From Candidatus Finniella inopinata (lineage in GTDB: Bacteria; Pseudomonadota; Alphaproteobacteria; Paracaedibacterales; CAITNM01): DNA of 64,000 bases. The position numbers and the translations under genes are program-made. This document shows, one piece after another, positions 4,378 to 48,126 of this stretch; positions within the stretch are counted from its first letter, which is position 1; each line of letters begins with the position of its first letter. The stretch lies in the NCBI GenBank assembly GCA_943322985.2, contig CALPGA020000004.1, positions 10,686-74,685 of the forward strand, in the 5' to 3' direction. The notes beneath the pieces were generated by a model. It did no database searches. It was not told the origin of the DNA and worked only from the letters and a program-made list of their open reading frames with translations.

Positions 4378-7300
4378 ATGAAAATACACCGTCGTTTTAC
4401 GGTCGCAGGACAGTCCCCATACGAAGGAATTGATTTCCGCTTAACTACTAGCGAAATTAAAAATCCAGACGGTTCTGTTGTATTTCTTCAGGAAAACATT
4501 GAAGTGCCTGCACATTGGTCGCAAGTGGCAAGTGATGTCATTGCCCAAAAATATTTTCGTAAAGCTGGTATCCCGGATGATTTAGTAACCGTAAAGGAAG
4601 ATGACGTTCCCGTTTGGCTTCAACGTAGAAAAGCAAAAGCAGGGAGCTCTGTTCGTAGCGAAAGATCTGCAAAAGAAGTTTTCAGTCGTTTGGCCGGAAC
4701 TTGGACTTACTGGGGATGGAAAAATGGGTATTTTGACTTAGAAGAAGACGCACGTACATTTTATGATGAAATGCAGTACATGTTATGCATGCAGGTTGCA
4801 GCACCAAATTCACCGCAGTGGTTTAACACTGGTGTTTATTGGGCTTATGGTGTTGATGGCCCTGCTCAAGGACATTTCTTCGTTGATGAAAAAACAGGTC
4901 AGCTAAAGCAATCAACATCTGCATATGAACGTCCACAACCACATGCGTGTTTCATTCAATCGGTAAAAGATGATTTGGTTAACGACGGCGGCATTATGGA
5001 CCTTTGGGTTCGCGAAGCACGTCTATTTAAATACGGGTCTGGCACAGGGTCTAACTTTTCAAATTTACGTGGCTTTGGTGAAAAGCTATCTGGTGGTGGT
5101 TATTCTTCAGGTTTAATGAGTTTTTTACGTATTGGTGACCGTTCAGCTGGTGCTATTAAATCTGGTGGAACGACAAGACGCGCTGCAAAAATGGTGGTGC
5201 TTGATATTGATCACCCAGATGTTATTAATTTCATTGATTGGAAAGTCATTGAAGAACAAAAAGTTGCTGCACTGGTTACTGGTTCAAAGTTAAACCAGCT
5301 TCATTTGAATGAAATTATTTCGGCTTGTATTAATAATGATCTTAAAGAAACAGATCGTTTTGATCCAAAAACCAACCCTGCGTTGAAAACAACCATTCGC
5401 GCTGCACGCGCTGTATTGGTTCCTGAAAATTACATTAAGCGTGCTATTCACATGGCTCAGCTAGGGTACACTAGCTTCCCATTCCCATCTTATAATACTG
5501 ATTGGGATAGTGAAGCTTATGGAACAGTTTCAGGTCAAAATTCAAATAACACAGTCCGCGTTACTAATGCCTTTTTAGAAAGTGTTTTAGAAAATAAAGA
5601 ATGGAGCTTAACTTCACGTACAAATGGTGAAGCAGTTAAAACGCTACCAGCAAAAGAATTATGGGATAAAGTTGGTTTTGCTGCTTGGGCATGTGCAGAT
5701 CCAGGTATTCAATTTGATACAACCATAAACGAATGGCACACTTGCCCAAATAGTGGACGAATTAATGCATCAAATCCATGTTCTGAATATATGTTTATTG
5801 ATGATACCGCATGTAACCTTGCTTCAATCAACCTTGTTACATTGTACAAAGATGGCCAGTTTGATATAGCAGCATTTGAACATGCTATTACCCTTTGGAC
5901 AGTTGTTCTTGAAATTTCTGTGCTTATGGCGCAATTCCCATCTAGGGCTATTGCTCAGCTATCTTATGATTTCCGTACGCTTGGTTTAGGATACGGTAAC
6001 CTAGGTGGTCTATTAATGGCTATGGGTATTGCTTACGATAGCCCAGAAGGCCGTTGTATTGCTGGAGCACTAGCTGCAATTCTAACCGGTGTAAGCTACA
6101 GGACTTCTGCACTTATGGCAAAAGAACTTGGGGCATTCCCAGGCTACGCAAAAAATAAAGATGCGATGATCCGGGTTATGCGTAACCACCGTCGTGCTGC
6201 ATATGGCGAAACTAAAAATTATGAAGATCTATCAATTCTACCTGTTCCGCTTCGTGCAAGTGATTGTGCTATTCCAGGATTAATTGAAGCGGCTTGCCAA
6301 GCTTGGGATGAAGCTGTTTCATATGGTGAACAGTTTGGTTACCGTAACGCTCAAACCACGTGTATTGCCCCAACTGGGACTATTGGATTGGTGATGGATT
6401 GTGACACAACAGGTGTTGAGCCAGATTTTGCTTTGGTTAAATTCAAAAAACTTGCTGGTGGTGGGTACTTTAAAATTATTAACCAAATGGTTCCTTCAGC
6501 ATTGAAAGTTTTGGGTTACACTCCAGAGCAAATGCTGGAAATTTCTAATTATGCCGTGGGCTACGCATCACTTGAAAATGCGCCTGCAATTAATCACACA
6601 TCTTTAAAAGCAAAGGGATTTACTAATAAAGAGCTAACAGCAATTTCCGCTGTGTTGAAATCAGCCTTTGATATCAAGTTTGTTTTTAATAAATACACTC
6701 TGGGTGAAGATTTTTGCAAAGGAACATTAAAGCTAACTGATGATCAATTATGTGATCCATCTTTTGATATGCTGACCCATCTTGGGTTTAGTAAACAAGA
6801 CATTGAAGATGCTAACACATACTGCTGTGGTACAATGACTCTAGAAGGGGCGCCTCACTTAAAAATAGAACATCTTCCAGTTTTTGATTGTGCAAACCCA
6901 TGTGGACGTATTGGTAAGCGTTTCTTGTCTTTCGATAGCCATATTGAAATGATGGCAGCGGTTCAGCCATTCATAAGTGGTGCTATTTCTAAAACTGTGA
7001 ATATGCCGGCTCAAGCAACTGTTGAAGATTGCCAATCAGCTTATATGAAATCATGGCGTCTTTGCCTAAAGGCAAATGCTTTGTATCGTGATGGTTCAAA
7101 GCTTTCTCAACCTTTAAGCAGCATAAGCTTTGATGAAGACGAAGCTGAAGAAATTGCACAAATGCCACAAACGCAAAAAGCTCAAGTGGTTGCTGAAAAA
7201 ATTGTTGAACGTATTATTGAACGTGTTGTTTACGAATCAAAACGTCAAAAATTGCCAAACCGTCGTGGTGGTTATACTCAAAAAGCGGTTGTAGGTGGGC

Positions 7301-30466: not shown

Positions 30467-31573
30467 ATGACTTGGAATTGGCAGCAACCAAACTGGCCTC
30501 AATTTACATATGATTCAGAAGCCATTAAACCCCTAGAAGCAACATTTCTAAGTGAGTCTGGTACATTGAAGGGGGCCTTAAAATATCTAAATAGCGCTGA
30601 TAAAGAACAACTTATTATTGATCACCTTGCCCAAGAAGCATTAAAAACTACTGAAATTGAGGGTGAGTATTTGAATCGAGAGAGTGTGCAATCTTCAATC
30701 AGACAACATTTTGGATTAGTAGTTGGGCCAAAGAAAGCTTCAAATCCCAAAGAACAAGGAATTGCAGACCTATTAATTAATCTTTATAGGCATTTTGATA
30801 ATTCTTTATCAAATGAAAGCTTATGGGGATGGCATAAAATGGTTTGTATGGGCTTAAGTGATATTGAAAGCGTAGGTTCATATCGTACTCATATTGAACC
30901 TATGCAAATAGTTTCAGGAATGGGATTTAAGCAAAAGGTTTATTTTGAAGCTCCACCATCAAAAAATATTTTTCAGCAGATGGAAAAATTTATTGAATGG
31001 TTTAATGCGACAACAAACTCTTTATCTGCGTTAACTCGAGCTGGCATTGCACATTTGTATTTTGTCTCAATTCATCCTTTTGAAGATGGCAACGGAAGAA
31101 TTGCCAGGGCCATTGCAGAGAAAGCATTGTCACAACACTTAGGTTCCCCCACTTTAATAGCATTATCCCACATAATATCTCTTAACCGTGCTGCTTATTA
31201 CGAGGCTCTGGAAAAAAATAACCAAACTCTAGAAATTACAGATTGGTTGATCTATTTTTCAAATACCATTTTACAGGCACAAAAATATTCTATTCGGCTC
31301 ATTGATTTTCTTATTCAAAAAACAAAATTGCTAGATATAGTCAAAGACAAATTGAAACCCAGACAGTTAAAGGTACTATTACGCATGTTTCGCGAAGGGC
31401 CAGATGGCTTTAAAGGTGGCTTAAGTGCGGATAATTACATTAATATTTCTGGTGCATCTAGGGCAACAGCAACCCGTGATCTGCAAGAATTAGTTGAGAA
31501 GAAGGCTCTTATTTCTAGTGGGCAATTAAAAGGAACCAGGTATCATTTACAACTTAGTGGGTTATCTATTTAG
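30467..31573 (+). CDS. Fic-family AMPylase-type protein (class II: N-terminal inhibitory helix, Fic core, C-terminal winged HTH)
   Basis: Fic motif HPFEDGNGRIARA. Inhibitory motif TTEIEG ([ST]xxxE[GN]) lies upstream. The C-terminal SRATATRDLQELVEKKAL...GTRYHL is wHTH-like. Confidence 0.85.
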   Translation: MTWNWQQPNWPQFTYDSEAIKPLEATFLSESGTLKGALKYLNSADKEQLIIDHLAQEALKTTEIEGEYLNRESVQSSIRQHFGLVVGPKKASNPKEQGIADLLINLYRHFDNSLSNESLWGWHKMVCMGLSDIESVGSYRTHIEPMQIVSGMGFKQKVYFEAPPSKNIFQQMEKFIEWFNATTNSLSALTRAGIAHLYFVSIHPFEDGNGRIARAIAEKALSQHLGSPTLIALSHIISLNRAAYYEALEKNNQTLEITDWLIYFSNTILQAQKYSIRLIDFLIQKTKLLDIVKDKLKPRQLKVLLRMFREGPDGFKGGLSADNYINISGASRATATRDLQELVEKKALISSGQLKGTRYHLQLSGLSI

Positions 31574-36483: not shown

Positions 36484-37746
36484 ATGTCATCTTTGAATCA
36501 GGTCATTACGCTTGGCTGTCGCTTAAATACATACGAATCAAAAGTCATTCAAGACTTAGCTGCTCAGGCCGGGGTGGCTAATACTGTATTCATTAATACC
36601 TGTGCCGTAACAGCAGAGGCTGAACGTCAAGCACGCCAAACAATTCGTAAAATGTACCGAGCAAATCCTGATGTGAAAATTGTTGTGACAGGGTGTAGTG
36701 CTCAGATTAATCCTGCTCAATATCAGCAAATGCCTGAAGTTTCTAAGGTTATCGGCAACGAAGAAAAAATGCAGCTAAACACGTACATGAATTTGCACAG
36801 TGCTGACAAAGTTGTTGTTAGCGACATTATGGAAGTTAAAGAAACTGCTGCTCATTTGGTATCAGGGTTTGATGGTAAAGCACGCGCCTTTGTGCAAGTG
36901 CAAAATGGCTGTGATCATCGTTGCACATTCTGCACTATTCCCTATGGTCGTGGAAACTCTAGAAGTGTTGCTATTGGCGAAATTGTTGCACAAATCCGTA
37001 GCCTTTTGGAAAATGGCTATCAAGAAATTGTCTTCACGGGGGTTGATATCACCGCTTATGGTGCTGATCTGCCTGGGCAGCCAACTCTTGGTCAAATGAT
37101 TCGTCGCGTTCTGGCACTTATTCCTGAATTAAAACGTCTTCGCTTATCTTCCCTTGATCCTGTGGAAATTGATGAAGACCTATGGCGACTAATAGGTGAT
37201 GAGCCAAAACTTATGCCGCATTTACACCTTAGCTTACAAGCTGGTGATAACATGATTTTAAAACGCATGAAGCGTCGCCATTTGCGTGAAGATGCTATTG
37301 CCTTTAGCAACCGTGCAAAAATGCTGCGTCCGGATGTTGTATTTGGCGCCGATTTAATTGCAGGTTTTCCTACGGAGACTGATGAAATGTTTGAAAATTC
37401 ACTCCGCATCGTTGATGAGTGTGATTTAACCTATCTTCATGTGTTTCCTTATTCGCCTCGTCCTGGAACCCCTGCAGCGCGCATGCCGCAGCTACCAGGA
37501 GGTATTATTAAAGAACGAGCGCGTCAACTGCGCGACCAAGGTGATATAGCGGTAAATCGCACTTTTGGACGGTTTACTGGTCAAACCTTGAACGTGCTGG
37601 TTGAAGAATCAGAGAATGGCACCATAAAAGGTAAAACTGATCATTTTGCCCCTATTCAAATTCCAGGGGCAGCTAGCATTTCATCTGTAATTTCCGTTAA
37701 AATTATTCAAAATACAAATCAACATCTTATCGGACAACTACTGTGA
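36484..37746 (+). CDS. mtaB: tRNA (t6A37) methylthiotransferase MtaB (MiaB-like radical SAM)
   Basis: UPF0004 N-domain GCRLNTYES...NTCAVT, radical SAM motif CDHRCTFCTIP, and a C-terminal TRAM-like region. Confidence 0.8.
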   Translation: MSSLNQVITLGCRLNTYESKVIQDLAAQAGVANTVFINTCAVTAEAERQARQTIRKMYRANPDVKIVVTGCSAQINPAQYQQMPEVSKVIGNEEKMQLNTYMNLHSADKVVVSDIMEVKETAAHLVSGFDGKARAFVQVQNGCDHRCTFCTIPYGRGNSRSVAIGEIVAQIRSLLENGYQEIVFTGVDITAYGADLPGQPTLGQMIRRVLALIPELKRLRLSSLDPVEIDEDLWRLIGDEPKLMPHLHLSLQAGDNMILKRMKRRHLREDAIAFSNRAKMLRPDVVFGADLIAGFPTETDEMFENSLRIVDECDLTYLHVFPYSPRPGTPAARMPQLPGGIIKERARQLRDQGDIAVNRTFGRFTGQTLNVLVEESENGTIKGKTDHFAPIQIPGAASISSVISVKIIQNTNQHLIGQLL

Positions 37747-38648
37747 GCATTTGGCAAAAACTAAAATCTGGCCTTTCAAAGACTTCTCAAAGCATTACAC
37801 AAGGAATCACATCTGTATTTTTGCATCGAAAGCTAGATGAAGACATCTTAGACGCTTTTGAAGAAATGCTTATTGCCGCTGACCTAGGTGTACAAACTGC
37901 TGCTGAGCTTCGTGATCTGCTGAAGAAACAACGTATGCACCAAGAAATTTCAGAGCCAGAAATCAAGGAATGGCTGGCAACAGAAATTGCTAAAATTCTA
38001 GAACCTGTTGCAGTTCCTTTGCGCATTACCAACAAGCCACACGTTATTCTAATGATCGGGGTGAATGGAGCGGGGAAAACTACCACTATTGCTAAATTAA
38101 GCCAACAGTGGATTGGTGAAGGAAAAAAAGTAATTTGGGCAGCTGGTGATACGTTTCGTTCGGCAGCAGTTGAACAACTACAAGTGTGGGGGAAGCGCTT
38201 GGGAATTGAAGTATGCACCACAAAGCCAGGTGGTGATGCTGCAGGTTTAGCATTTGACGCTTATCAAAAAGCAATTCAAAGCAATGCTAACGTTTTATGT
38301 ATTGATACTGCAGGTAGACTACAAAACAAAAAACACTTAATGGACGAACTAGAAAAAATTGTTCGAGTGCTCAAAAAAGCAGAGTTATCTGCTCCACATA
38401 CAGTTTTACTAGTGCTAGATGCTACAACCGGCAAAAATGCGATAGACCAGGTGAAAACTTTTCAAGAGCTTATAGGCATTGACGGTTTAGTTGTTACCAA
38501 GCTAGATGGTACCGCCAAAGGTGGTGTTGTTGTTGCATTATCAAAACAATTTACCATTCCAATTGTTGCACTCGGCGTTGGTGAAGGCGCTGATGACCTA
38601 AAACCCTTCAATGCCCAAGACTTTTCGAAAGCTCTTGTCGGGGGATAA
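37743..38648 (+). CDS. ftsY: Signal recognition particle receptor FtsY (NG domain only)
   Basis: GVNGAGKTTTIAKL, DTAGRL and TKLDGTAKGG motifs. The GTG start overlaps the mtaB stop (GTGA). Confidence 0.9.
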   Translation: MSIWQKLKSGLSKTSQSITQGITSVFLHRKLDEDILDAFEEMLIAADLGVQTAAELRDLLKKQRMHQEISEPEIKEWLATEIAKILEPVAVPLRITNKPHVILMIGVNGAGKTTTIAKLSQQWIGEGKKVIWAAGDTFRSAAVEQLQVWGKRLGIEVCTTKPGGDAAGLAFDAYQKAIQSNANVLCIDTAGRLQNKKHLMDELEKIVRVLKKAELSAPHTVLLVLDATTGKNAIDQVKTFQELIGIDGLVVTKLDGTAKGGVVVALSKQFTIPIVALGVGEGADDLKPFNAQDFSKALVGG

Positions 38649-38846
38649 GTCAATGGACTCACTCTGTTGTTTCAATTTCTTTACTGCTTCTAGCATGGTA
38701 TATGCAATCAAATCAGGGTTGAAATTGAAATCCTCTGCTAGAATTGCTCTTGTTACACTGTGCTTGTGGATTTGACTCTCTAGCATTGCTTCTGAATCGT
38801 TAACATATTTTACCAGTCTGATAGAATTATTACTTTTCATAACCAT
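38598..38846 (-). CDS. Small hypothetical protein (~82 aa); its 3' end overlaps the 3' end of ftsY convergently by 51 nt
   Basis: The ORF has the SD-like sequence gggga upstream of ATG 38846 and a good promoter-like element at 38903-38930. No recognisable domain. Confidence 0.35.
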   Translation of the reverse strand: MVMKSNNSIRLVKYVNDSEAMLESQIHKHSVTRAILAEDFNFNPDLIAYTMLEAVKKLKQQSESIDLSPDKSFRKVLGIEGF

Positions 38847-38902
38847 TCTCCCCATTCTAATATTTTCTTATATTGCTTTAATCTATATAAAACGCCTTAG
38901 GG

Positions 38903-38930
38903 TATATAGTTTTTTTACTTAAAAAGTCAA
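38903..38930 (-). promoter_or_regulatory. Candidate sigma70-type promoter for the small ORF at 38598-38846
   Basis: On the minus strand: TTGACT (38930-38925), a 16-nt spacer, then TATATA (38908-38903). Confidence 0.35.
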
Positions 38931-38975
38931 TAGCTAGAGGTATAATTTTTTTTGACTGCTCCTTAGTTGAATATT

Positions 38976-39020
38976 TTATCTAAACGGACACTCATCAAAA
39001 CCTCGCAGTTTTCTGGAATA
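38976..39020 (-). repeat. Third, diverged copy of the amn 3' end (15 codons including the stop), located just downstream of the LAS-peptidase gene
   Basis: On the minus strand it reads tat tcc aga aaa ctg cga ggt ttt gat gag tgt ccg ttt aga taa = YSRKLRGFDECPFR*. Over the shared SRKLRGFDECPFR* codons there are five nucleotide differences from the real amn end, all synonymous. Confidence 0.85.
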
Positions 39021-39039
39021 TAAGGTGCTGTGAATGAAT

Positions 39040-39750
39040 CTATTTAATTATCTCAAACTCTACATGATAATGAGAATCATGAGGGAACCAGGCTTTCTGC
39101 GATGCAAAAGGAATGCTATTTAATTTTTGATGAAGATCAGTTTTTCTGAGCAACCTTAATAAAGCTGGGTCAAATATTACAATTTTTATTTTTAAAGAAA
39201 AAAGTTTACATGTTTCTTGTAAGGCTTTTAAATGTTCAATAATTGCTTCAAAACTTATTGAATACTGATCATGAACACCATTTTCATTAAACCTTACGTA
39301 GTATCCCCAACCATTCAGAGCCCACAACCACATAGTTGCTGGATTGTTTTCCTTTTTTACTGGAACCATAAAGTCAACATATAGGCCATTTTTATGGGTT
39401 TTATGAGGCCAAAAATTTCCACCGTTTTTCCATCCTGTTTCTCCATAAACGTAAATAATATTAGGTTGAGTTGTTTCTAAAATTTTGTAGGATTTAATTA
39501 TTGCATCACGCACTCTTTCGTGTACGTGAGTACGGCCTATGGCTGACAAAAATCTAGAATATGTTTGGTAGTTTTTTCCTTCAGTTGGTAGCCTTTTTGC
39601 GTTCTGAATAGTTAAAGATTTTTTGCCATCTATGACTATTTTACTAGGTAAATTGTTTTCTAATTGTCTTAACCAGTCGTTGCCATTGTAAATAAAAATT
39701 AAAAATAAAATTATTGTAAAAAAAGAAATTTTACCTAAACGGACACTCAT
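39040..39750 (-). CDS. LAS-family zinc metallopeptidase (MepA / M74-like murein endopeptidase-like), secreted
   Basis: N-terminal hydrophobic signal/anchor GKISFFTIILFLIFIY. Metal motifs HKNGLYVD (Hx6D) and HDSHYHVEF (HxH). Confidence 0.55.
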   Translation of the reverse strand: MSVRLGKISFFTIILFLIFIYNGNDWLRQLENNLPSKIVIDGKKSLTIQNAKRLPTEGKNYQTYSRFLSAIGRTHVHERVRDAIIKSYKILETTQPNIIYVYGETGWKNGGNFWPHKTHKNGLYVDFMVPVKKENNPATMWLWALNGWGYYVRFNENGVHDQYSISFEAIIEHLKALQETCKLFSLKIKIVIFDPALLRLLRKTDLHQKLNSIPFASQKAWFPHDSHYHVEFEIIK

Positions 39751-39859
39751 CAAACCCTCTTAGTTTTCTAGATTGTAAATAAAAATTAAAAATAAAATTA
39801 TTGTAAAAAAAGAAATTTTACCTAAACGGACACTCATCAAACCCTCTTAGTTTTCTAGA
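39686..39859. repeat. Perfect 87-bp tandem duplication spanning the amn 3' end and the overlapping 5' end of the peptidase gene
   Basis: 39686-39772 is identical to 39773-39859 in a base-by-base comparison. Confidence 0.95.
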
Positions 39860-41269
39860 ATGCAATCGTTGAGGATCCATTTTTTGTAAAATTTCCATAG
39901 CTTCAATACCTACATGCAAGTGGTTGTTTACCCGGTTTTTATAAAATTCATTGGCCATTGCCTGAAGTTTAATTACCCCATGAATAGGCTTGTCGGAAAT
40001 GCATAATAGTGTGCCATATGGTACGCGAAACCTAAATCCATTAGCTGCTATAGTTGCTGATTCCATATCAACGGCAATCGCTCGGCTTTGGCGGAATCTT
40101 TCGTACAGTGCTTTGCTTTGTAATTCCCAGTTTCTATTATCGGTAGTGTGTACCGTACCTGTGCGAATAGCGGACTTTAGTTCACATTCGCCTTTTCCAA
40201 AAATATGTAAAATAGATTGTTGAAGCGCTTGCTGAATTTCAGCAATGGGTGGCACAGGTACCCATTTTGGTAAATCATCGTCTAGCACGTGGTCTTCACG
40301 TACATACCCGTCTGCTAGTACGTACTCTCCCAGAACTTGGCTTGCCCTCAGTCCAGCGCAATGCCCAAGCATAACCCAACAATGAGGCCTTAAAACAGCC
40401 AAATGGTCAGTAATTGTTTTCGCATTACTAGGGCCCACACCAATATTAATAATGCTGATGCCATTTTTCCCAGGTTTTTTAAAGTGGTAGGCTGGCATCT
40501 GGGGCAATAGTTTTGGCAATTCAGTCGTATTTTGTTTGTGTGATGCTAAAATTGTTTCACCAGGTCCAGTTAGTTCCCAGTCATTTTTTTGATGATGTTC
40601 AATTATGTGTGATGTTTGGCTAATGAACTCGTCTATATAGCGTTGATAATTTGTAAGCAGAATAAAGTTTTGAAAATGATTCGGTGGGGTTCCTGTGTAG
40701 TGATGTAGTCGTTGCAAAGAAAAATCTACTCTCTCTCCAGTAAACAAAGCTAAAGGTCGATAACCATCTGGAACAAAAGTGGCATTGGCAAAAGAATCAT
40801 CTATTCGCTTTAAATCTGGAAGTACAAATTTACTTCTCAATCGCATAAGTTCATCAACATCAAATTGTGCGTGCGAATGTTCAATTACAAAGGGTAGGGG
40901 GATTTTACAATCGCTATACCCAACTACAACTGAAACTCTGTGGCGTTCAATAATTAAGCTTATTTGCTCACGAAAGTATGCATCGTAAAGTTCTGGTGCG
41001 GTAACGGTTGTTCCATAATGTCCTGGTTCATTAATCACACCATAAGCAAAGCTTGGGTCAACGAATAAATCATCGTGACCAATGCTTACACCAATGAAAG
41101 GATAATAACTAAATTCGGCATGATCATCGGGAACTTCTCCGCTTTTTTCAAACTCACTGAAATTATCGCAAATTTGCGAAACTGCTTTGTTATAAAGTTC
41201 GTGAACGTAGTCAACAGCATCATCTGCACTATCAAACCATTTTGCGTATTTAAGATGTTCCCAAGCCAT
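39818..41269 (-). CDS. amn: AMP nucleosidase
   Basis: 483 aa. N-terminal Amn-specific domain plus a PNP/UDP phosphorylase-like catalytic domain (GVGPSNAKTITDHL, VDMESATIAANGFRFRVPYGTLLCISDKP). Confidence 0.85.
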   Translation of the reverse strand: MAWEHLKYAKWFDSADDAVDYVHELYNKAVSQICDNFSEFEKSGEVPDDHAEFSYYPFIGVSIGHDDLFVDPSFAYGVINEPGHYGTTVTAPELYDAYFREQISLIIERHRVSVVVGYSDCKIPLPFVIEHSHAQFDVDELMRLRSKFVLPDLKRIDDSFANATFVPDGYRPLALFTGERVDFSLQRLHHYTGTPPNHFQNFILLTNYQRYIDEFISQTSHIIEHHQKNDWELTGPGETILASHKQNTTELPKLLPQMPAYHFKKPGKNGISIINIGVGPSNAKTITDHLAVLRPHCWVMLGHCAGLRASQVLGEYVLADGYVREDHVLDDDLPKWVPVPPIAEIQQALQQSILHIFGKGECELKSAIRTGTVHTTDNRNWELQSKALYERFRQSRAIAVDMESATIAANGFRFRVPYGTLLCISDKPIHGVIKLQAMANEFYKNRVNNHLHVGIEAMEILQKMDPQRLHSRKLRGFDECPFR

Positions 41270-41376
41270 TAAATGCTACCTTTCATTCTAATAAATGCTA
41301 CAACATACAGTAGTAAGCTTAATCCTACTAGCAGCCATAAAAGTGCTCGGTTGCGTTGCTTGAAGTGTTTATCCAT
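41269..41376 (-). CDS. Small 35-aa single-TM protein, absent from the ORF track; positional analogue of the small CoxF-type ORF downstream of ctaB
   Basis: MDKHFKQRNRALLWLLVGLSLLLYVVAFIRMKGSI*. Its ATG overlaps the ctaB stop (ATGGATAA) and its stop overlaps the amn ATG (TAATG). Confidence 0.45.
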   Translation of the reverse strand: MDKHFKQRNRALLWLLVGLSLLLYVVAFIRMKGSI

Positions 41377-42250
41377 AAATTTTCCTATCAGCTATAAGCG
41401 CTGCGAATATAACAAAAAGATACAAAATTGAAAATGCAAAAACCCTAAGTCCTTCGCGCAAATCGTCACTTTTATAAAGTTTTACCGTTAAAAATACAAA
41501 TCCTGCGCCAAATACAAGTGTGCAACCTAAATAAAGCCATCCCGCCATTCCAAGCACGTAGGGTATAATAGCGCTAACTACGGTTAATACCGCGTAAATT
41601 ATAATATATTTTTTTGTTTTTTGGATGCCCGCTGTGTTTGGCATCATCGGTAAACCAGCTTCAGCATATTCAGCTGCGTAGTTTAAGGCGAGGGCCCAAA
41701 AATGTGCGGGGGTCCACAAAAATATAATTAAAAATAAACTCCAAGGGCGCCAATCAAGGGGAGATACAGCAGCCCAACCAATTACAGGGGGCAGGGCACC
41801 CGCTATGCCACCAATTACAATATTATGTGGCGTATTAGGTTTTAAAAGAACAGTGTAAACCCCAACATAAAATCCAATAGTAAGCGCAAGCAACACTGCA
41901 GCTGTTGTGTTCACCGCTACTTGGCAAACCATGATGGACAGCATGCTTAGTATAACACCAAATGCCAAGGCTGAATCAGGATGTATTAAACCAGATGCTG
42001 TAGGTCTTGCCATTGTGCGGATCATACGTTTATCAATATCACGTTCGTACCACATGTTTAAACATCCCGCAGCACCTGCACCTCCCGCAATACATAAAAT
42101 AGCGGTGAATCCTAAAATGGGGTGAATATGCCCAGGGGCAATCCACAGGCCACAAAAGCCTGTAAAAATCACCAAACTCATAACTCGGGGCTTTAGAAGT
42201 TCCCAATAGTTATGTACGGATGGGCTTGTATAAGGTATTACTGTGGGCAA
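41369..42250 (-). CDS. ctaB: Protoheme IX farnesyltransferase (heme O synthase)
   Basis: UbiA-family polytopic protein with YERDIDKRMIRTMARP (NxxxDxxxD-like) and WTPAHFWALAL motifs. TTG start. Confidence 0.9.
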   Translation of the reverse strand: MPTVIPYTSPSVHNYWELLKPRVMSLVIFTGFCGLWIAPGHIHPILGFTAILCIAGGAGAAGCLNMWYERDIDKRMIRTMARPTASGLIHPDSALAFGVILSMLSIMVCQVAVNTTAAVLLALTIGFYVGVYTVLLKPNTPHNIVIGGIAGALPPVIGWAAVSPLDWRPWSLFLIIFLWTPAHFWALALNYAAEYAEAGLPMMPNTAGIQKTKKYIIIYAVLTVVSAIIPYVLGMAGWLYLGCTLVFGAGFVFLTVKLYKSDDLREGLRVFAFSILYLFVIFAALIADRKIYG

Positions 42251-46195: not shown

Positions 46196-46319
46196 TTCTC
46201 GTATGTAAAATAGTTATGCTTGGGTTAAATCATTACACAAAAAACGCTTGTTCGAAAAGCCGTTGAAATGTTTTAGAGGCTAAGTTAGCATGCATTATTG
46301 TCTAATTTTGTTAAAATTT

Positions 46320-47231
46320 ATGACTTTTTTGAGAAATTCCTCTCTCTTACTCATTATTATTTCGTTTTTATTCAAAATAGATGCAGCTCAAGCAATAAAC
46401 GTTTTGGAAGGAGAAGCGTCTGAAGTTCAAGTACAAACTGTTATTCCCGATCACTTAATGACTTTGTTAGAAAAAGAAAAATATATATATACCCTAGATT
46501 CTTACAAAAATATTGTTATAACGATTGATGAGCCTACAGCTGGAAATATTTCTTCTCTTCAAACGATAATCACGGAAATGGGAATAACGTATAGAAATTA
46601 TGGTTTATACGTTCATATTCCAGTTAGTGCAGGAGAGTTTTCAGCAAAGTTAGAAAAGTTGGGGTTACGATTATACGAATTAAATAGCGATGCTAAAACT
46701 TTAACCTACCTTTATGCCAATGGGCGAAATATTCCTGATATAAATTATGCTTATTCAGTGGTAGCGGTGTGCTTATTACGGACTAATCCAAACGGTGCCA
46801 AAGAAGCTTTAGTTATTAATGAACCCCAAAAAACTATATCCAATCTGGTAGGTGGCTGTTTAAAAAAAGGGGAATCACCAGAAGATGCTGTAGTTAGGTG
46901 TGCTCGTGAAGAAATCAGCGTTGACCTAAATAAAGCAAAACTAAAGTTAGTGGCTGTTTGTCATACAATCAGGGCTGATAAAAAATCCTACGTTGAATTT
47001 CTCTATACCTGCGATGAATTTCAAGGTCAGCCAATCGCTGATGGAATTGAAGCTCGTCAATATACATGGGCCCCACTTTCAGAATTACTAAAGAGCGGCG
47101 TCAAATTTTTTGAAAAACCTTTTAGCCCTATTTGGCAAAAGCTTTTAAAGGGCGAGTTTAAAGACTTAGAAAAAGGTGCAGCTATCAATAGAAACAAACA
47201 GGCATATCAACGCTTTAGTTTTATTGAATAA
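46320..47231 (+). CDS. Secreted Nudix-domain protein with an N-terminal pre-Nudix domain (paralog 1)
   Basis: Signal peptide MTFLRNSSLLLIIISFLFKIDAAQA (start chosen by alignment to paralog 2; the ORF is open from 46290). Nudix box GCLKKGESPEDAVVRCAREEISV. Confidence 0.65.
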   Translation: MTFLRNSSLLLIIISFLFKIDAAQAINVLEGEASEVQVQTVIPDHLMTLLEKEKYIYTLDSYKNIVITIDEPTAGNISSLQTIITEMGITYRNYGLYVHIPVSAGEFSAKLEKLGLRLYELNSDAKTLTYLYANGRNIPDINYAYSVVAVCLLRTNPNGAKEALVINEPQKTISNLVGGCLKKGESPEDAVVRCAREEISVDLNKAKLKLVAVCHTIRADKKSYVEFLYTCDEFQGQPIADGIEARQYTWAPLSELLKSGVKFFEKPFSPIWQKLLKGEFKDLEKGAAINRNKQAYQRFSFIE

Positions 47232-47313
47232 TAATCAATCATACATTAGGGACTTGTTTACCAAAAAAATATAACTTACAACCTTGTTAGTTACTTAAGA
47301 CTTCTTATCCCCA

Positions 47314-48126
47314 ATGTTCTTTTTAAAAAACGTTCAGTTCTTATTCATTGTATTATCGGTACTTCTAAAAATAGAAGCTGCAGATGTGCAGGTCCAGGTA
47401 GTAGTTCCTGCTTCTTTAAACACTAAATTAAATGGCCTGGATCATAAAATAGATTCATATAAAAACATTGTTGTAACCCTTAAAACTCCATCAAATGGAG
47501 CTGTTAATCAGTTAAAAAGAGTCATTGCAGAAATGCAAAAATCTTATAAAAATTATGGATTATATGTTCAAATCCCAGTTGTTCATGGAGATTTTTCTAG
47601 AAAGCTAGAAAAAATTGGTTTTAAATTTTGTGAATCAGACACAGCATTAAAAACTTTAACCTATCTTTATGCGAATGGCCGAAACATCCCAGAGCTTAAC
47701 TACGCATACACAGCAGCTGCCGTATATTTGCTGCGAAATAACCCCGAAACAGGTGCGAAGGAAATTTTAATAATAAATGAACAACAAAAAACTATAGCAA
47801 ATATTATTGGTGGAATTTCAGAAAAGGGAGAGTCACCCGAGGAAACAGTAATTCGGGAAACCCGTGAAGAAGTCAGCATTACATTAAATAAAGACAAACT
47901 AAAGCTTGTAGCTGTTGCTCATACAGTACGACCTGATAAAAAATCTTTGGTGGAATTTCTTTATGTGTGTGACGAATTTGAAGGCACACCAAAGGTTGAT
48001 GGTAAAGAAGTCAGTGAATGTACTTGGGTTCCAGTATCCAATTTATTAAAAGAAGGTGTCAAAATTTTTGAAAAACCATTTAGCCCATTTTGGCAACGGT
48101 TTTTGAAAAATGAATTTAAAGAATGA
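47314..48126 (+). CDS. Secreted Nudix-domain protein (paralog 2), C-terminally truncated by a 13-bp tandem duplication
   Basis: Signal peptide MFFLKNVQFLFIVLSVLLKIEA. Nudix box GISEKGESPEETVIRETREEVSI. The ancestral frame continues to TAG 48200-48202 once one 13-bp unit is removed. Confidence 0.65.
   Translation: MFFLKNVQFLFIVLSVLLKIEAADVQVQVVVPASLNTKLNGLDHKIDSYKNIVVTLKTPSNGAVNQLKRVIAEMQKSYKNYGLYVQIPVVHGDFSRKLEKIGFKFCESDTALKTLTYLYANGRNIPELNYAYTAAAVYLLRNNPETGAKEILIINEQQKTIANIIGGISEKGESPEETVIRETREEVSITLNKDKLKLVAVAHTVRPDKKSLVEFLYVCDEFEGTPKVDGKEVSECTWVPVSNLLKEGVKIFEKPFSPFWQRFLKNEFKE

Follow-up and report, generated by a model that had tools for sequence, protein, structure and literature searches.

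The AMP nucleosidase gene amn of a Candidatus Finniella-like member of the Paracaedibacteraceae (Holosporales) is followed, in a 64-kb stretch of contig CALPGA020000004.1 (hereafter the window), by a gene for a MepA-like peptidoglycan peptidase and, just behind the stop codon of the latter, by a further copy of its own 3′ end, which we call the relic. This relic is likely the displaced native end of amn, made by recombination with the amn-peptidase locus of a relative and without any dedicated mobile element. An 87-bp tandem duplication at the junction of the two genes is a separate matter and a later event. The window is the reverse complement of the ENA contig ERZ28593089 scaffold_329; the organism that carries it, a lake-dwelling symbiont, was recognized by scanning a genome collection with Amn, and all data for this locus are short-read metagenome assemblies. 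Comparison loci and contigs are given L numbers below. The features on which the argument turns are the following (window coordinates):

39818..41269, minus strand: amn (AMP nucleosidase), allele class W, with its stop TAA (39818-39820) in the distal unit of the 87-bp duplication
39040..39750, minus strand: peptidase gene (MepA-like, Peptidase_M74, LAS fold), 236 amino acids, with an N-terminal hydrophobic helix (open reading frame 39040-39750/39753)
39021..39039, minus strand: 19-nucleotide (nt) joint between the peptidase stop and the relic, presumably an illegitimate junction
38976..39020, minus strand: relic, probable displaced native amn 3′ end, reading YSRKLRGFDECPFR and a stop, with its own core at 38980-38999
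38598..38975, minus strand: 85-codon open reading frame (orf85) and 120-nt spacer, the native sequence 3′ of amn, which directly adjoins the amn stop in peptidase-less relatives
39735..39754, minus strand: 20-nt core in the proximal junction copy, including the peptidase ATG
39822..39841, minus strand: 20-nt core in the distal junction copy, i.e. in the functional amn end
39685..39859, no strand assigned: perfect tandem duplication, 87 bp x 2 (units 39686-39772 and 39773-39859), found with Tandem Repeats Finder
39021..41277, minus strand: putative imported segment (amn of class W, peptidase and joint), its extent being taken from comparison and not from an observed event

An earlier note on this DNA, made from its letters alone, had described a third copy of the amn end at 38976-39020, and this copy is indeed present and still reads YSRKLRGFDECPFR up to a stop. 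A repeat search returned it at 38973-39023 with 86 % identity to both junction copies, and in the amn frame it translates into ...LYSRKLRGFDECPFR followed by a stop, vs ...LHSRKLRGFDECPFR and a stop at the real amn end. The five nucleotide differences listed at that time (TCT>TCC, CTA>CTG, AGA>CGA, GGG>GGT and AGG>AGA) were all found, and all are synonymous; however, the similarity extends two codons further (TTG CAT vs TTA TAT), and of these two additional differences one is synonymous and the other is an H>Y replacement at the edge. The synonymous share of the possible single substitutions in these codons is 21 %, which gives a probability of about 4.5e-4 for five out of five by chance. The 20-nt core, likewise proposed earlier, is shared by all three copies and occurs exactly three times in the window, even with three mismatches allowed, against an expectation of 0.00 from 100 shuffles. 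The relic is no gene of its own, as it lacks a start codon and follows an in-frame stop. Its left part reads TTA TAT TCC AGA AAA CTG CGA GGK, and its homology to amn ends at TTR YAT TCY; no homology to amn was detected in the 19 nt after the peptidase stop (TAG, 39040-39042), where the sequence begins ATTCATTCACAGCACC.

Relatives without the peptidase show what the locus looks like when unoccupied. The nearest species representatives by Amn are L017, L027 and L018 (97, 91 and 89 % amino acid identity, respectively), in none of which a tblastn search returned the peptidase; their amn end runs straight into TAAAA(T/C)ATTCA(A/G)CTAA(G/A)G..., followed by orf85 and ftsY. Three further loci lacking the peptidase (L100, L110 and L111) share the same-species backbone, their flanks matching the window at 97-100 %, and from the core on there is no difference between their amn end and the relic. 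In all six loci amn is directly followed by TAAAATATTCAACTAAGGAGCAGTC...orf85-ftsY, i.e. by the window sequence at 38975 and below, and the synteny comparison suggested in the earlier note thus came out positive. Given these empty sites and the matching amn ends, the third copy would be the native amn end, displaced by whatever carried the peptidase in.

The foreign DNA probably reaches well beyond the peptidase. Two classes of amn alleles, W (the window and L017) and X (L100, L027 and L018), are about 18 % apart in nucleotide and 9 % in protein sequence, on backbones that are 94-100 % identical. The window amn shows 94.6 % nucleotide identity to that of L017 and 81-83 % to those of L100, L027 and L018, where the flanks are 84-100 % identical. 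For the sequence upstream of amn, amn itself and the sequence downstream, respectively, identities are 96.6, 82.7 and 97.2 % between the window and L100 (same species, no peptidase) and 94.4, 82.2 and 93.0 % between the window and L027, vs 94.6, 91.5 and 95.3 % between L100 and L027 and 84.4, 88.6 and 85.3 % between L100 and L018, both of these pairs carrying the X allele. The X alleles therefore follow the genome backbone, while the W allele does not. Some 8 nt before the amn ATG, divergence from L100 and L111 sets in, and it ceases at the 20-nt core; by sliding identity and boundary alignment, the flanks match these two loci at 97-100 % and amn at 82.6 %, and the change from about 99 to about 82 % takes place no further than about 10 nt from the ATG. 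The peptidase was seen solely alongside the W allele. Since the amn allele too is foreign to the backbone, the imported tract is, judged from these alignments, probably about 2.2 kb long and comprises the entire amn allele plus the peptidase, instead of the insert of about 0.75 kb assumed in the earlier note.

Other lineages carry the two genes together as a matter of course. In the more distant Finniella-like loci L012-L016 and L112/113, the peptidase is 63-66 % and Amn 84-86 % identical to the window proteins, the two genes overlap by 20 nt, the peptidase stop is followed after 8-27 nt by a convergent gene, and relics are lacking; for L012, L013 and L014, the tree of the peptidase agrees with that of amn. 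One homolog, P0012 (52 % identical), does not adjoin amn. Because the 20-nt overlap is normal and relic-free in these lineages, the fused amn-peptidase pair is, on sequence comparison, the ordinary chromosomal arrangement of the wider clade and not the signature of a mobile cassette. The two genes are also tied together by their code: the peptidase ATG is built from the amn codons GAT GAG (Asp-Glu) of the conserved C-terminus GFDECPFR, which ends at the stop, and in the unduplicated haplotype it sits 20 nt inside amn. A functional peptidase gene is therefore unable to move without an amn end.

No machinery for dedicated mobility was found around the locus. Recombinase and transposase domains were absent from open reading frames of at least 170 amino acids between 27.5 and 56.7 kb of the window, i.e. 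about 11 kb on one side and about 17 kb on the other; in particular, rve, Phage_integrase, Resolvase and DDE domains were detected neither in the called genes at 33.0-45.8 kb nor in open reading frames of at least 170 amino acids at 27.5-36.4 and 43.0-56.7 kb, some of the reading frames searched having no Pfam match whatever. The absence of a recombinase noted earlier thus holds within this range. As expected of an attL/attR-type insertion, direct repeats of a gene end flank the insert, and unoccupied sites exist in L017, L027, L018, L100, L110 and L111. However, no copy at other sites and no discordance with the host tree were seen: the trees agree among L012-L014, no relics occur there and the core is confined to this locus within the window. 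Of the attL/attR logic put forward in the earlier note, the displaced native end and the insertion with a replacement end are supported, while the dedicated integrative element is not, as there is no recombinase nearby, the overlap is ordinary in outgroups and the foreign DNA probably measures about 2.2 kb.

We propose the following course of events. Ancestrally, amn and a MepA-like peptidase gene would have been fused by the 20-nt overlap, as in the more distant lineages of the group, and the window organism's immediate clade would have had no peptidase, with amn followed by orf85 and ftsY. Incoming DNA from an unsampled relative with the fused pair, outside the backbone group, would then have replaced the resident amn: on the left by homologous recombination at the amn start, and on the right by an illegitimate join of a point about 20 nt past the peptidase stop to a point about 45-50 nt ahead of the resident amn stop. 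The last 15 or so codons (about 45 nt) of the resident amn would thereby have been shifted behind the peptidase as the non-functional relic (38976-39020). The true junction may fall up to about 9 nt further into the relic, and ATTC / AGAAAAC is a possible microhomology at the right joint. With the drop in identity at the amn ATG as a homologous anchor end and the relic as an orphaned old 3′ end downstream, the geometry probably matches, by analogy, homology-facilitated illegitimate recombination, i.e. 3′-end displacement. The peptidase may be deleted again by recombination between the two direct repeats of about 45 nt, and L017 looks like the product: it carries the W allele without the peptidase, and its amn end combines a W-type left part with a native right part. 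The functional junction of the window has the same W-type left part (AGA, as in L017). Taken as a whole, co-import of the W allele, an illegitimate right-hand joint and secondary loss in L017 stand at about an even chance.

Several points weigh against displacement by recombination with a relative's locus. The W allele without the peptidase in L017 requires a secondary deletion; in the Campbell-type rival described below, L017 is simply the unoccupied site. The left 24 nt of the relic show 5/24 differences from the X-class amn end of the same-species locus L100. No donor lineage was found in the search for one, the best non-self homolog of the peptidase (L114/115) being 68 % identical. The direction, i.e. 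gain instead of loss, is inferred by parsimony from the sequences of few genomes in a visibly recombining population. To our knowledge, DNA uptake has not been described in these intracellular bacteria.

As to the left part of the relic, it is 1 nt away from the amn end of L018 (CTG CGA GGG) and from that of the outgroup L014. Either the recipient allele was not L100-like, or the joint lies further right (by up to 9 nt), or the stretch is donor-derived. The GGT/GGG site was considered as a crossover marker and discarded, since it is polymorphic in the relic and hence uninformative. A metagenome scan for a true amn ending in the exact left part of the relic (CARCGNYTNCAYTCCAGAAAACTGCGAGGNTTTGATGA) gave 0 matches, and a broader one for an amn end with the native downstream sequence gave two, both peptidase-less haplotypes of the X class; with two matches, most contigs of this organism are evidently missing from the collection, which allows no estimate of haplotype frequencies. 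The C-terminal amn fragment of L114/115 is equidistant from the W and X alleles.

The composition of the relic is also what the strongest competing explanation predicts, which we nevertheless regard as unlikely. Here, a circle of about 755 bp, holding about 45 nt resembling the amn end plus the peptidase, would have inserted into a resident W allele in the manner of Campbell, by a single crossover in the 20-26-nt identical core that was either RecA-dependent or due to a recombinase encoded elsewhere; L017 would represent the unoccupied attB, and the relic would consist of donor DNA on the left and native DNA on the right, which is the attL/attR logic of the earlier note. The functional junction is W-type on the left, whereas the relic differs on the left and is native on the right and downstream, as in a hybrid produced by a crossover in the core; in addition, L017 has the exact empty-site sequence predicted, and the outgroup L014, from whose amn end the left part of the relic is 1 nt away, bears the peptidase. 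However, an extra event would be needed for the discordance between the W allele and the backbone, with its edges at the gene start and at the core, and a 755-bp circle of exactly this content must be invented. There is no recombinase nearby, no second site, no further core in 64 kb and no sign of cassette mobility, and in the outgroups the peptidase and amn trees agree and relics are missing.

Somewhat less probable again is that the peptidase gene is a recombinase-less hitchhiking cassette, with insertion into, and excision from, any of the clade's amn alleles by host RecA. As the start codon and the first seven codons of the gene are part of the most conserved stretch of amn (GFDECPFR and the stop), the gene would always carry a built-in homology arm of about 45 nt; in L017 and L100 the site would be excised or empty, and repeated exchange would have left the relic alleles as footprints. 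If this were true, the gene overlap would be a transfer device.

The 87-bp duplication is real, a later polymorphism and independent of the relic. Tandem Repeats Finder reported a single array at 39685-39859 (period 87, 2.0 copies, 100 % matches, no indels), and a second repeat search gave 39685-39771 = 39772-39858 at 100 %; the perfect duplication described earlier is thus recovered, in a register that is 1 nt off and equivalent. The reading frames also bear out that the distal unit holds the end of amn and the proximal one the start of the peptidase, so that 68 nt lie between the amn stop and a peptidase ATG that otherwise overlaps amn. Among the 18 distinct contigs compared, all with the same amn and/or peptidase protein, the duplication is present in three, from three samples (the ENA contig of the window and the JGI contigs L106, from 3300035212, and L107, from 3300042562), and missing from the other 15, where amn and the peptidase overlap by 20 nt (gene calls amn 4569-6020 and peptidase 6001-6711). 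L106 and L107 carry the identical duplication but differ from the window in the linked haplotype in the peptidase 3′ half and the relic, and the duplication accordingly sits on two linked haplotypes, i.e. with relic allele A and with relic allele B. While three copies of the amn end do exist, the earlier picture of three copies bracketing one gene therefore merged two unrelated events, the duplication being the later one and absent from 15/18 contigs.

An assembly artefact might be suspected, given that 15/18 distinct contigs, several of them from the same sampling campaign, lack the duplication and that the data are short-read assemblies throughout. This is very unlikely, however, because the identical duplication junction recurs in contigs of other samples, i.e. 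in two JGI metagenomes as well as in the ENA contig, and on a different linked haplotype; moreover, the novel junction k-mer has to be in the reads before an assembly can include it.

The unit junction of the duplication is TTTATTTACAAT / CTAGAAAACTAAG, and the unit boundaries have just 1 nt of microhomology in common. A by-product is a decoy reading frame, which may be translated:

39760..39837, minus strand: decoy open reading frame arising from the duplication, reading MSVRLGKISFFTIILFLIFIYNLEN and a stop (25 codons), in which the duplicated peptidase start reads into the unit boundary; its stop lies 9 nt ahead of the real peptidase ATG

The left edges of the duplication (between CATT and CTAGAAAAC) and of the relic homology (between ATTC and CAGAAAAC) are within about 5 nt of each other, both lying at the palindrome TTCTAGAA in amn (window 39855-39865 and 39015-39025). 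This may be a coincidence, or the site may be a local hot spot of breakage or template switching.

An origin within the chromosome has hardly anything left to recommend it. A 755-bp tandem duplication of the amn end and peptidase, followed by decay or deletion of the second peptidase, with the peptidase-less relatives arising from repeat-mediated deletion, would leave direct repeats as its expected residue, and the locus does form tandem duplications, the 87-bp one beginning no more than 5 nt from the relic's left edge. Copies born identical should, however, accumulate differences chiefly in the copy free of constraint and irrespective of codon position, whereas here every difference is synonymous; the relic agrees with working amn ends found in other lineages, the discordance between W and X alleles is left unexplained, at least three independent precise losses (L017, L027 and L018) are needed and no trace of a second peptidase is seen past the relic, the homology ending 7 nt after the stop codon. 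A larger tandem array in decay, or the end of a second amn paralog, both entertained in the earlier note, find no support either: nothing upstream of the 48-nt copy resembles amn, and such an array was seen in none of the relatives; the synonymous pattern, the discordance of amn and the number of losses needed likewise speak against both.

The relic itself varies in the population, in a telling way. Five haplotypes were found among the contigs, all encoding one peptide, and the five segregating sites are all third positions, TAA/TAG included. Haplotypes A and B differ at 5/26 sites (19 %) just past the stop and at 0/30 first and second codon positions within the relic. Haplotype A is identical to the functional amn end of L100, and the same variants (AGA/AGG, TAA/TAG and GGN) occur in the working amn ends of peptidase-less relatives. 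The differences would all be synonymous because each copy evolved as a working amn end in a different lineage. Relic alleles of this kind, each of them once a functional amn end, are to be expected if strains with and without the peptidase later exchanged DNA by homologous recombination, the exchange tract being the homology in the relic and the downstream sequence, which is common to both strain types.

That the third copy is instead under selection because it is expressed, by a +1 frameshift extension of the peptidase at AAA TAG A or as a regulatory RNA or DNA element, is barely credible: although no first or second position has changed among 30 in five haplotypes while the spacer varies by 19 %, and although the relic, in the +1 frame relative to the peptidase, can be read back without a stop for 22 codons, as far as a TAA within the last codons of the peptidase, it lacks a start codon and any known slippery or stimulatory signal, terminator- or promoter-like signals do not exceed those of shuffles, the outgroup peptidases have no such tail and imported working amn ends, with haplotype A being that of L100, account fully for the pattern. 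Translation of the relic by frameshifting was accordingly rejected as unnecessary, the exchange of working amn ends being sufficient.

The gene downstream of amn is, by its modelled fold and its homologs, a MepA-like LAS/M74 peptidase. Against PF03411 the window protein itself scores 18.4 bits, below the 25-bit cutoff (E 0.0017), whereas 11/14 aligned homologs match this family (best E 6.5e-10); the homologs carry the annotation of penicillin-insensitive murein endopeptidases. A search of PDB sequences with a profile from the peptidase alignment gave no match. With an AlphaFold model (pLDDT 87.7, pTM 0.86), the top five Foldseek matches were E. coli MepA (1U10/1TZP; E 1.8e-8 to 1.9e-7, probability 1.00), next followed by hedgehog N-domains, which have the LAS fold in common. 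Invariant in the alignment are H116, H119, D126, H224, D225, H227 and H229, the candidate zinc-site residues. With the fold match to MepA and the PF03411 homologs, the label 'LAS peptidase' given from the sequence alone was right.

The G+C content of the peptidase gene is 31.4 %, vs 39.5 +/- 3.2 % in the open reading frames of the window and 38.6-40.0 % in the orthologs of L012-L014, and the gene is on a long branch, with 65-68 % identity to every relative, vs 70-85 % among the relatives themselves. Two population alleles are distinguished by two double-nucleotide amino acid changes, S164L and S166D. In L114 (347-505) and L115 (1-120), an insert of about 160 nt stands in place of the overlapping start and signal peptide and holds two copies of the palindrome CCACGGGGCTTGCCCCGTGG, which resembles a miniature inverted-repeat transposable element or a repetitive extragenic palindrome; the peptidase of these two loci may be inactivated or may use another start.

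The identity of amn is not in doubt, since it matches the AMP nucleosidase family at equivalog level over its full length (NF006142, 656.8 bits, cutoff 307) as well as TIGR01717 (571.4 bits, cutoff 364.7), with both the AMNp_N and PNP_UDP_1 domains found. On the minus strand the gene order is ctaB (41369-42250), amn (39818-41269), the 236-residue peptidase gene (39040-39750) and the 85-codon reading frame (38598-38855), and on the other strand follows:

37743-38648, plus strand: ftsY, convergent with orf85

orf85 has no Pfam or NCBIfam match and is conserved at 79-96 % in L017, L027 and L018; its 3′ end overlaps that of the convergent ftsY by about 50 nt, and at the contig ends of L107 and L108 it is interrupted by unrelated sequence. 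The spacer between the relic and orf85 holds a promoter-like TTGACT-16-TATATA, and a promoter and terminator scan of the locus gave no signal above shuffled expectation. In L006, a 36-nt deletion in this spacer (about 1930-1965, corresponding to window positions of about 38890-38925) has removed the TTGACT box. Insertion sequence elements near the locus were found in other strains only and none in the window. L106 carries a DDE_Tnp_1 fragment upstream of ctaB (57-353), and in L009 an IS30-like transposase (HTH_38 and rve; 1120-2250) lies about 20 nt past the relic. As a candidate mobilizer of the peptidase, this IS30-like element was rejected, being absent from the window and from all other contigs. 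Elsewhere in the window, a Fic/DOC protein with DUF4172 (30467-31573), two adjoining NUDIX paralogs (46290-48126) and a second peptidoglycan hydrolase (Amidase_2; 51366-51923) are encoded.

Together, these data make the locus a well-resolved natural case of the gain of one gene at the 3′ end of a housekeeping gene without mobile-element machinery, with occupied, empty and probably re-emptied sites all sampled in one lake population and its sister species. A displaced end with synonymous-only differences is a reliable sign of an imported functional homolog end, and overlapping genes move as one unit. Moreover, these obligate protist-associated Holosporales swap short DNA tracts often enough for mosaic boundaries to be tens of bases wide, and the polymorphic 87-bp duplication is a natural experiment in the separation of overlapping, presumably translationally coupled genes.

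Among known systems, the closest parallel is found at the rhs and type VI secretion system (T6SS) effector loci, where displacement of 3′ ends by incoming homologous modules has been described (Kirchberger et al. 2017, PMC5361080). C-terminal displacement at rhs, contact-dependent inhibition (CDI) and T6SS effector-immunity loci is ascribed to homology-facilitated illegitimate recombination by Jackson et al. (2009), as cited in PMC5361080. As at these loci, a conserved upstream sequence would have served as the anchor for the incoming homologous module, a new 3′ end and a new downstream gene would have been brought along while the old 3′ end was orphaned downstream, no recombinase would be involved and the resulting structures would later have been shuffled among strains by homologous recombination. 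In contrast to these loci, the gene concerned here is a housekeeping AMP nucleosidase and not a polymorphic toxin, the old and new ends encode the same peptide and there is a single displacement, not an array; the passenger is a peptidoglycan peptidase with its start codon in the displaced region, and the type of joint is inferred.

Prophages, genomic islands and integrative and conjugative elements target the 3′ end of tRNA, transfer-messenger RNA or protein genes and carry a replacement end, which yields attL and attR. In common with such elements, gene-end direct repeats flank the insert, the gene is intact, the displaced end lies on the far side and relatives have empty sites. Unlike in these elements, no integrase was found in the insert itself or in the 11-17 kb around it, a single gene, or amn together with a single gene, was inserted, the arrangement is ancestral and chromosomal in sister lineages and nothing points to the unit occurring elsewhere or in unrelated hosts.

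Integron gene cassettes are single promoterless genes of less than 1 kb that are inserted directionally, and the locus shares with them one promoterless gene of less than 1 kb and directional insertion; it differs in lacking an attC-like imperfect inverted repeat (inverted repeats are weak) as well as IntI and attI, and its repeat is a coding gene end. Campbell-type integration by a single crossover duplicates the segment of homology, and the homologous segment of about 45 nt, directly repeated at either end of the insert and hybrid in composition, is similar; however, such integration needs a circular substrate, which lacks support here, and leaves the foreign amn allele unexplained. Current concepts are unchanged, and the value of the locus lies in a clean case study and in a caution against naming such scars integrative elements: it is one more instance of a familiar type of event, an ordinary recombination scar and not a new mobile element.

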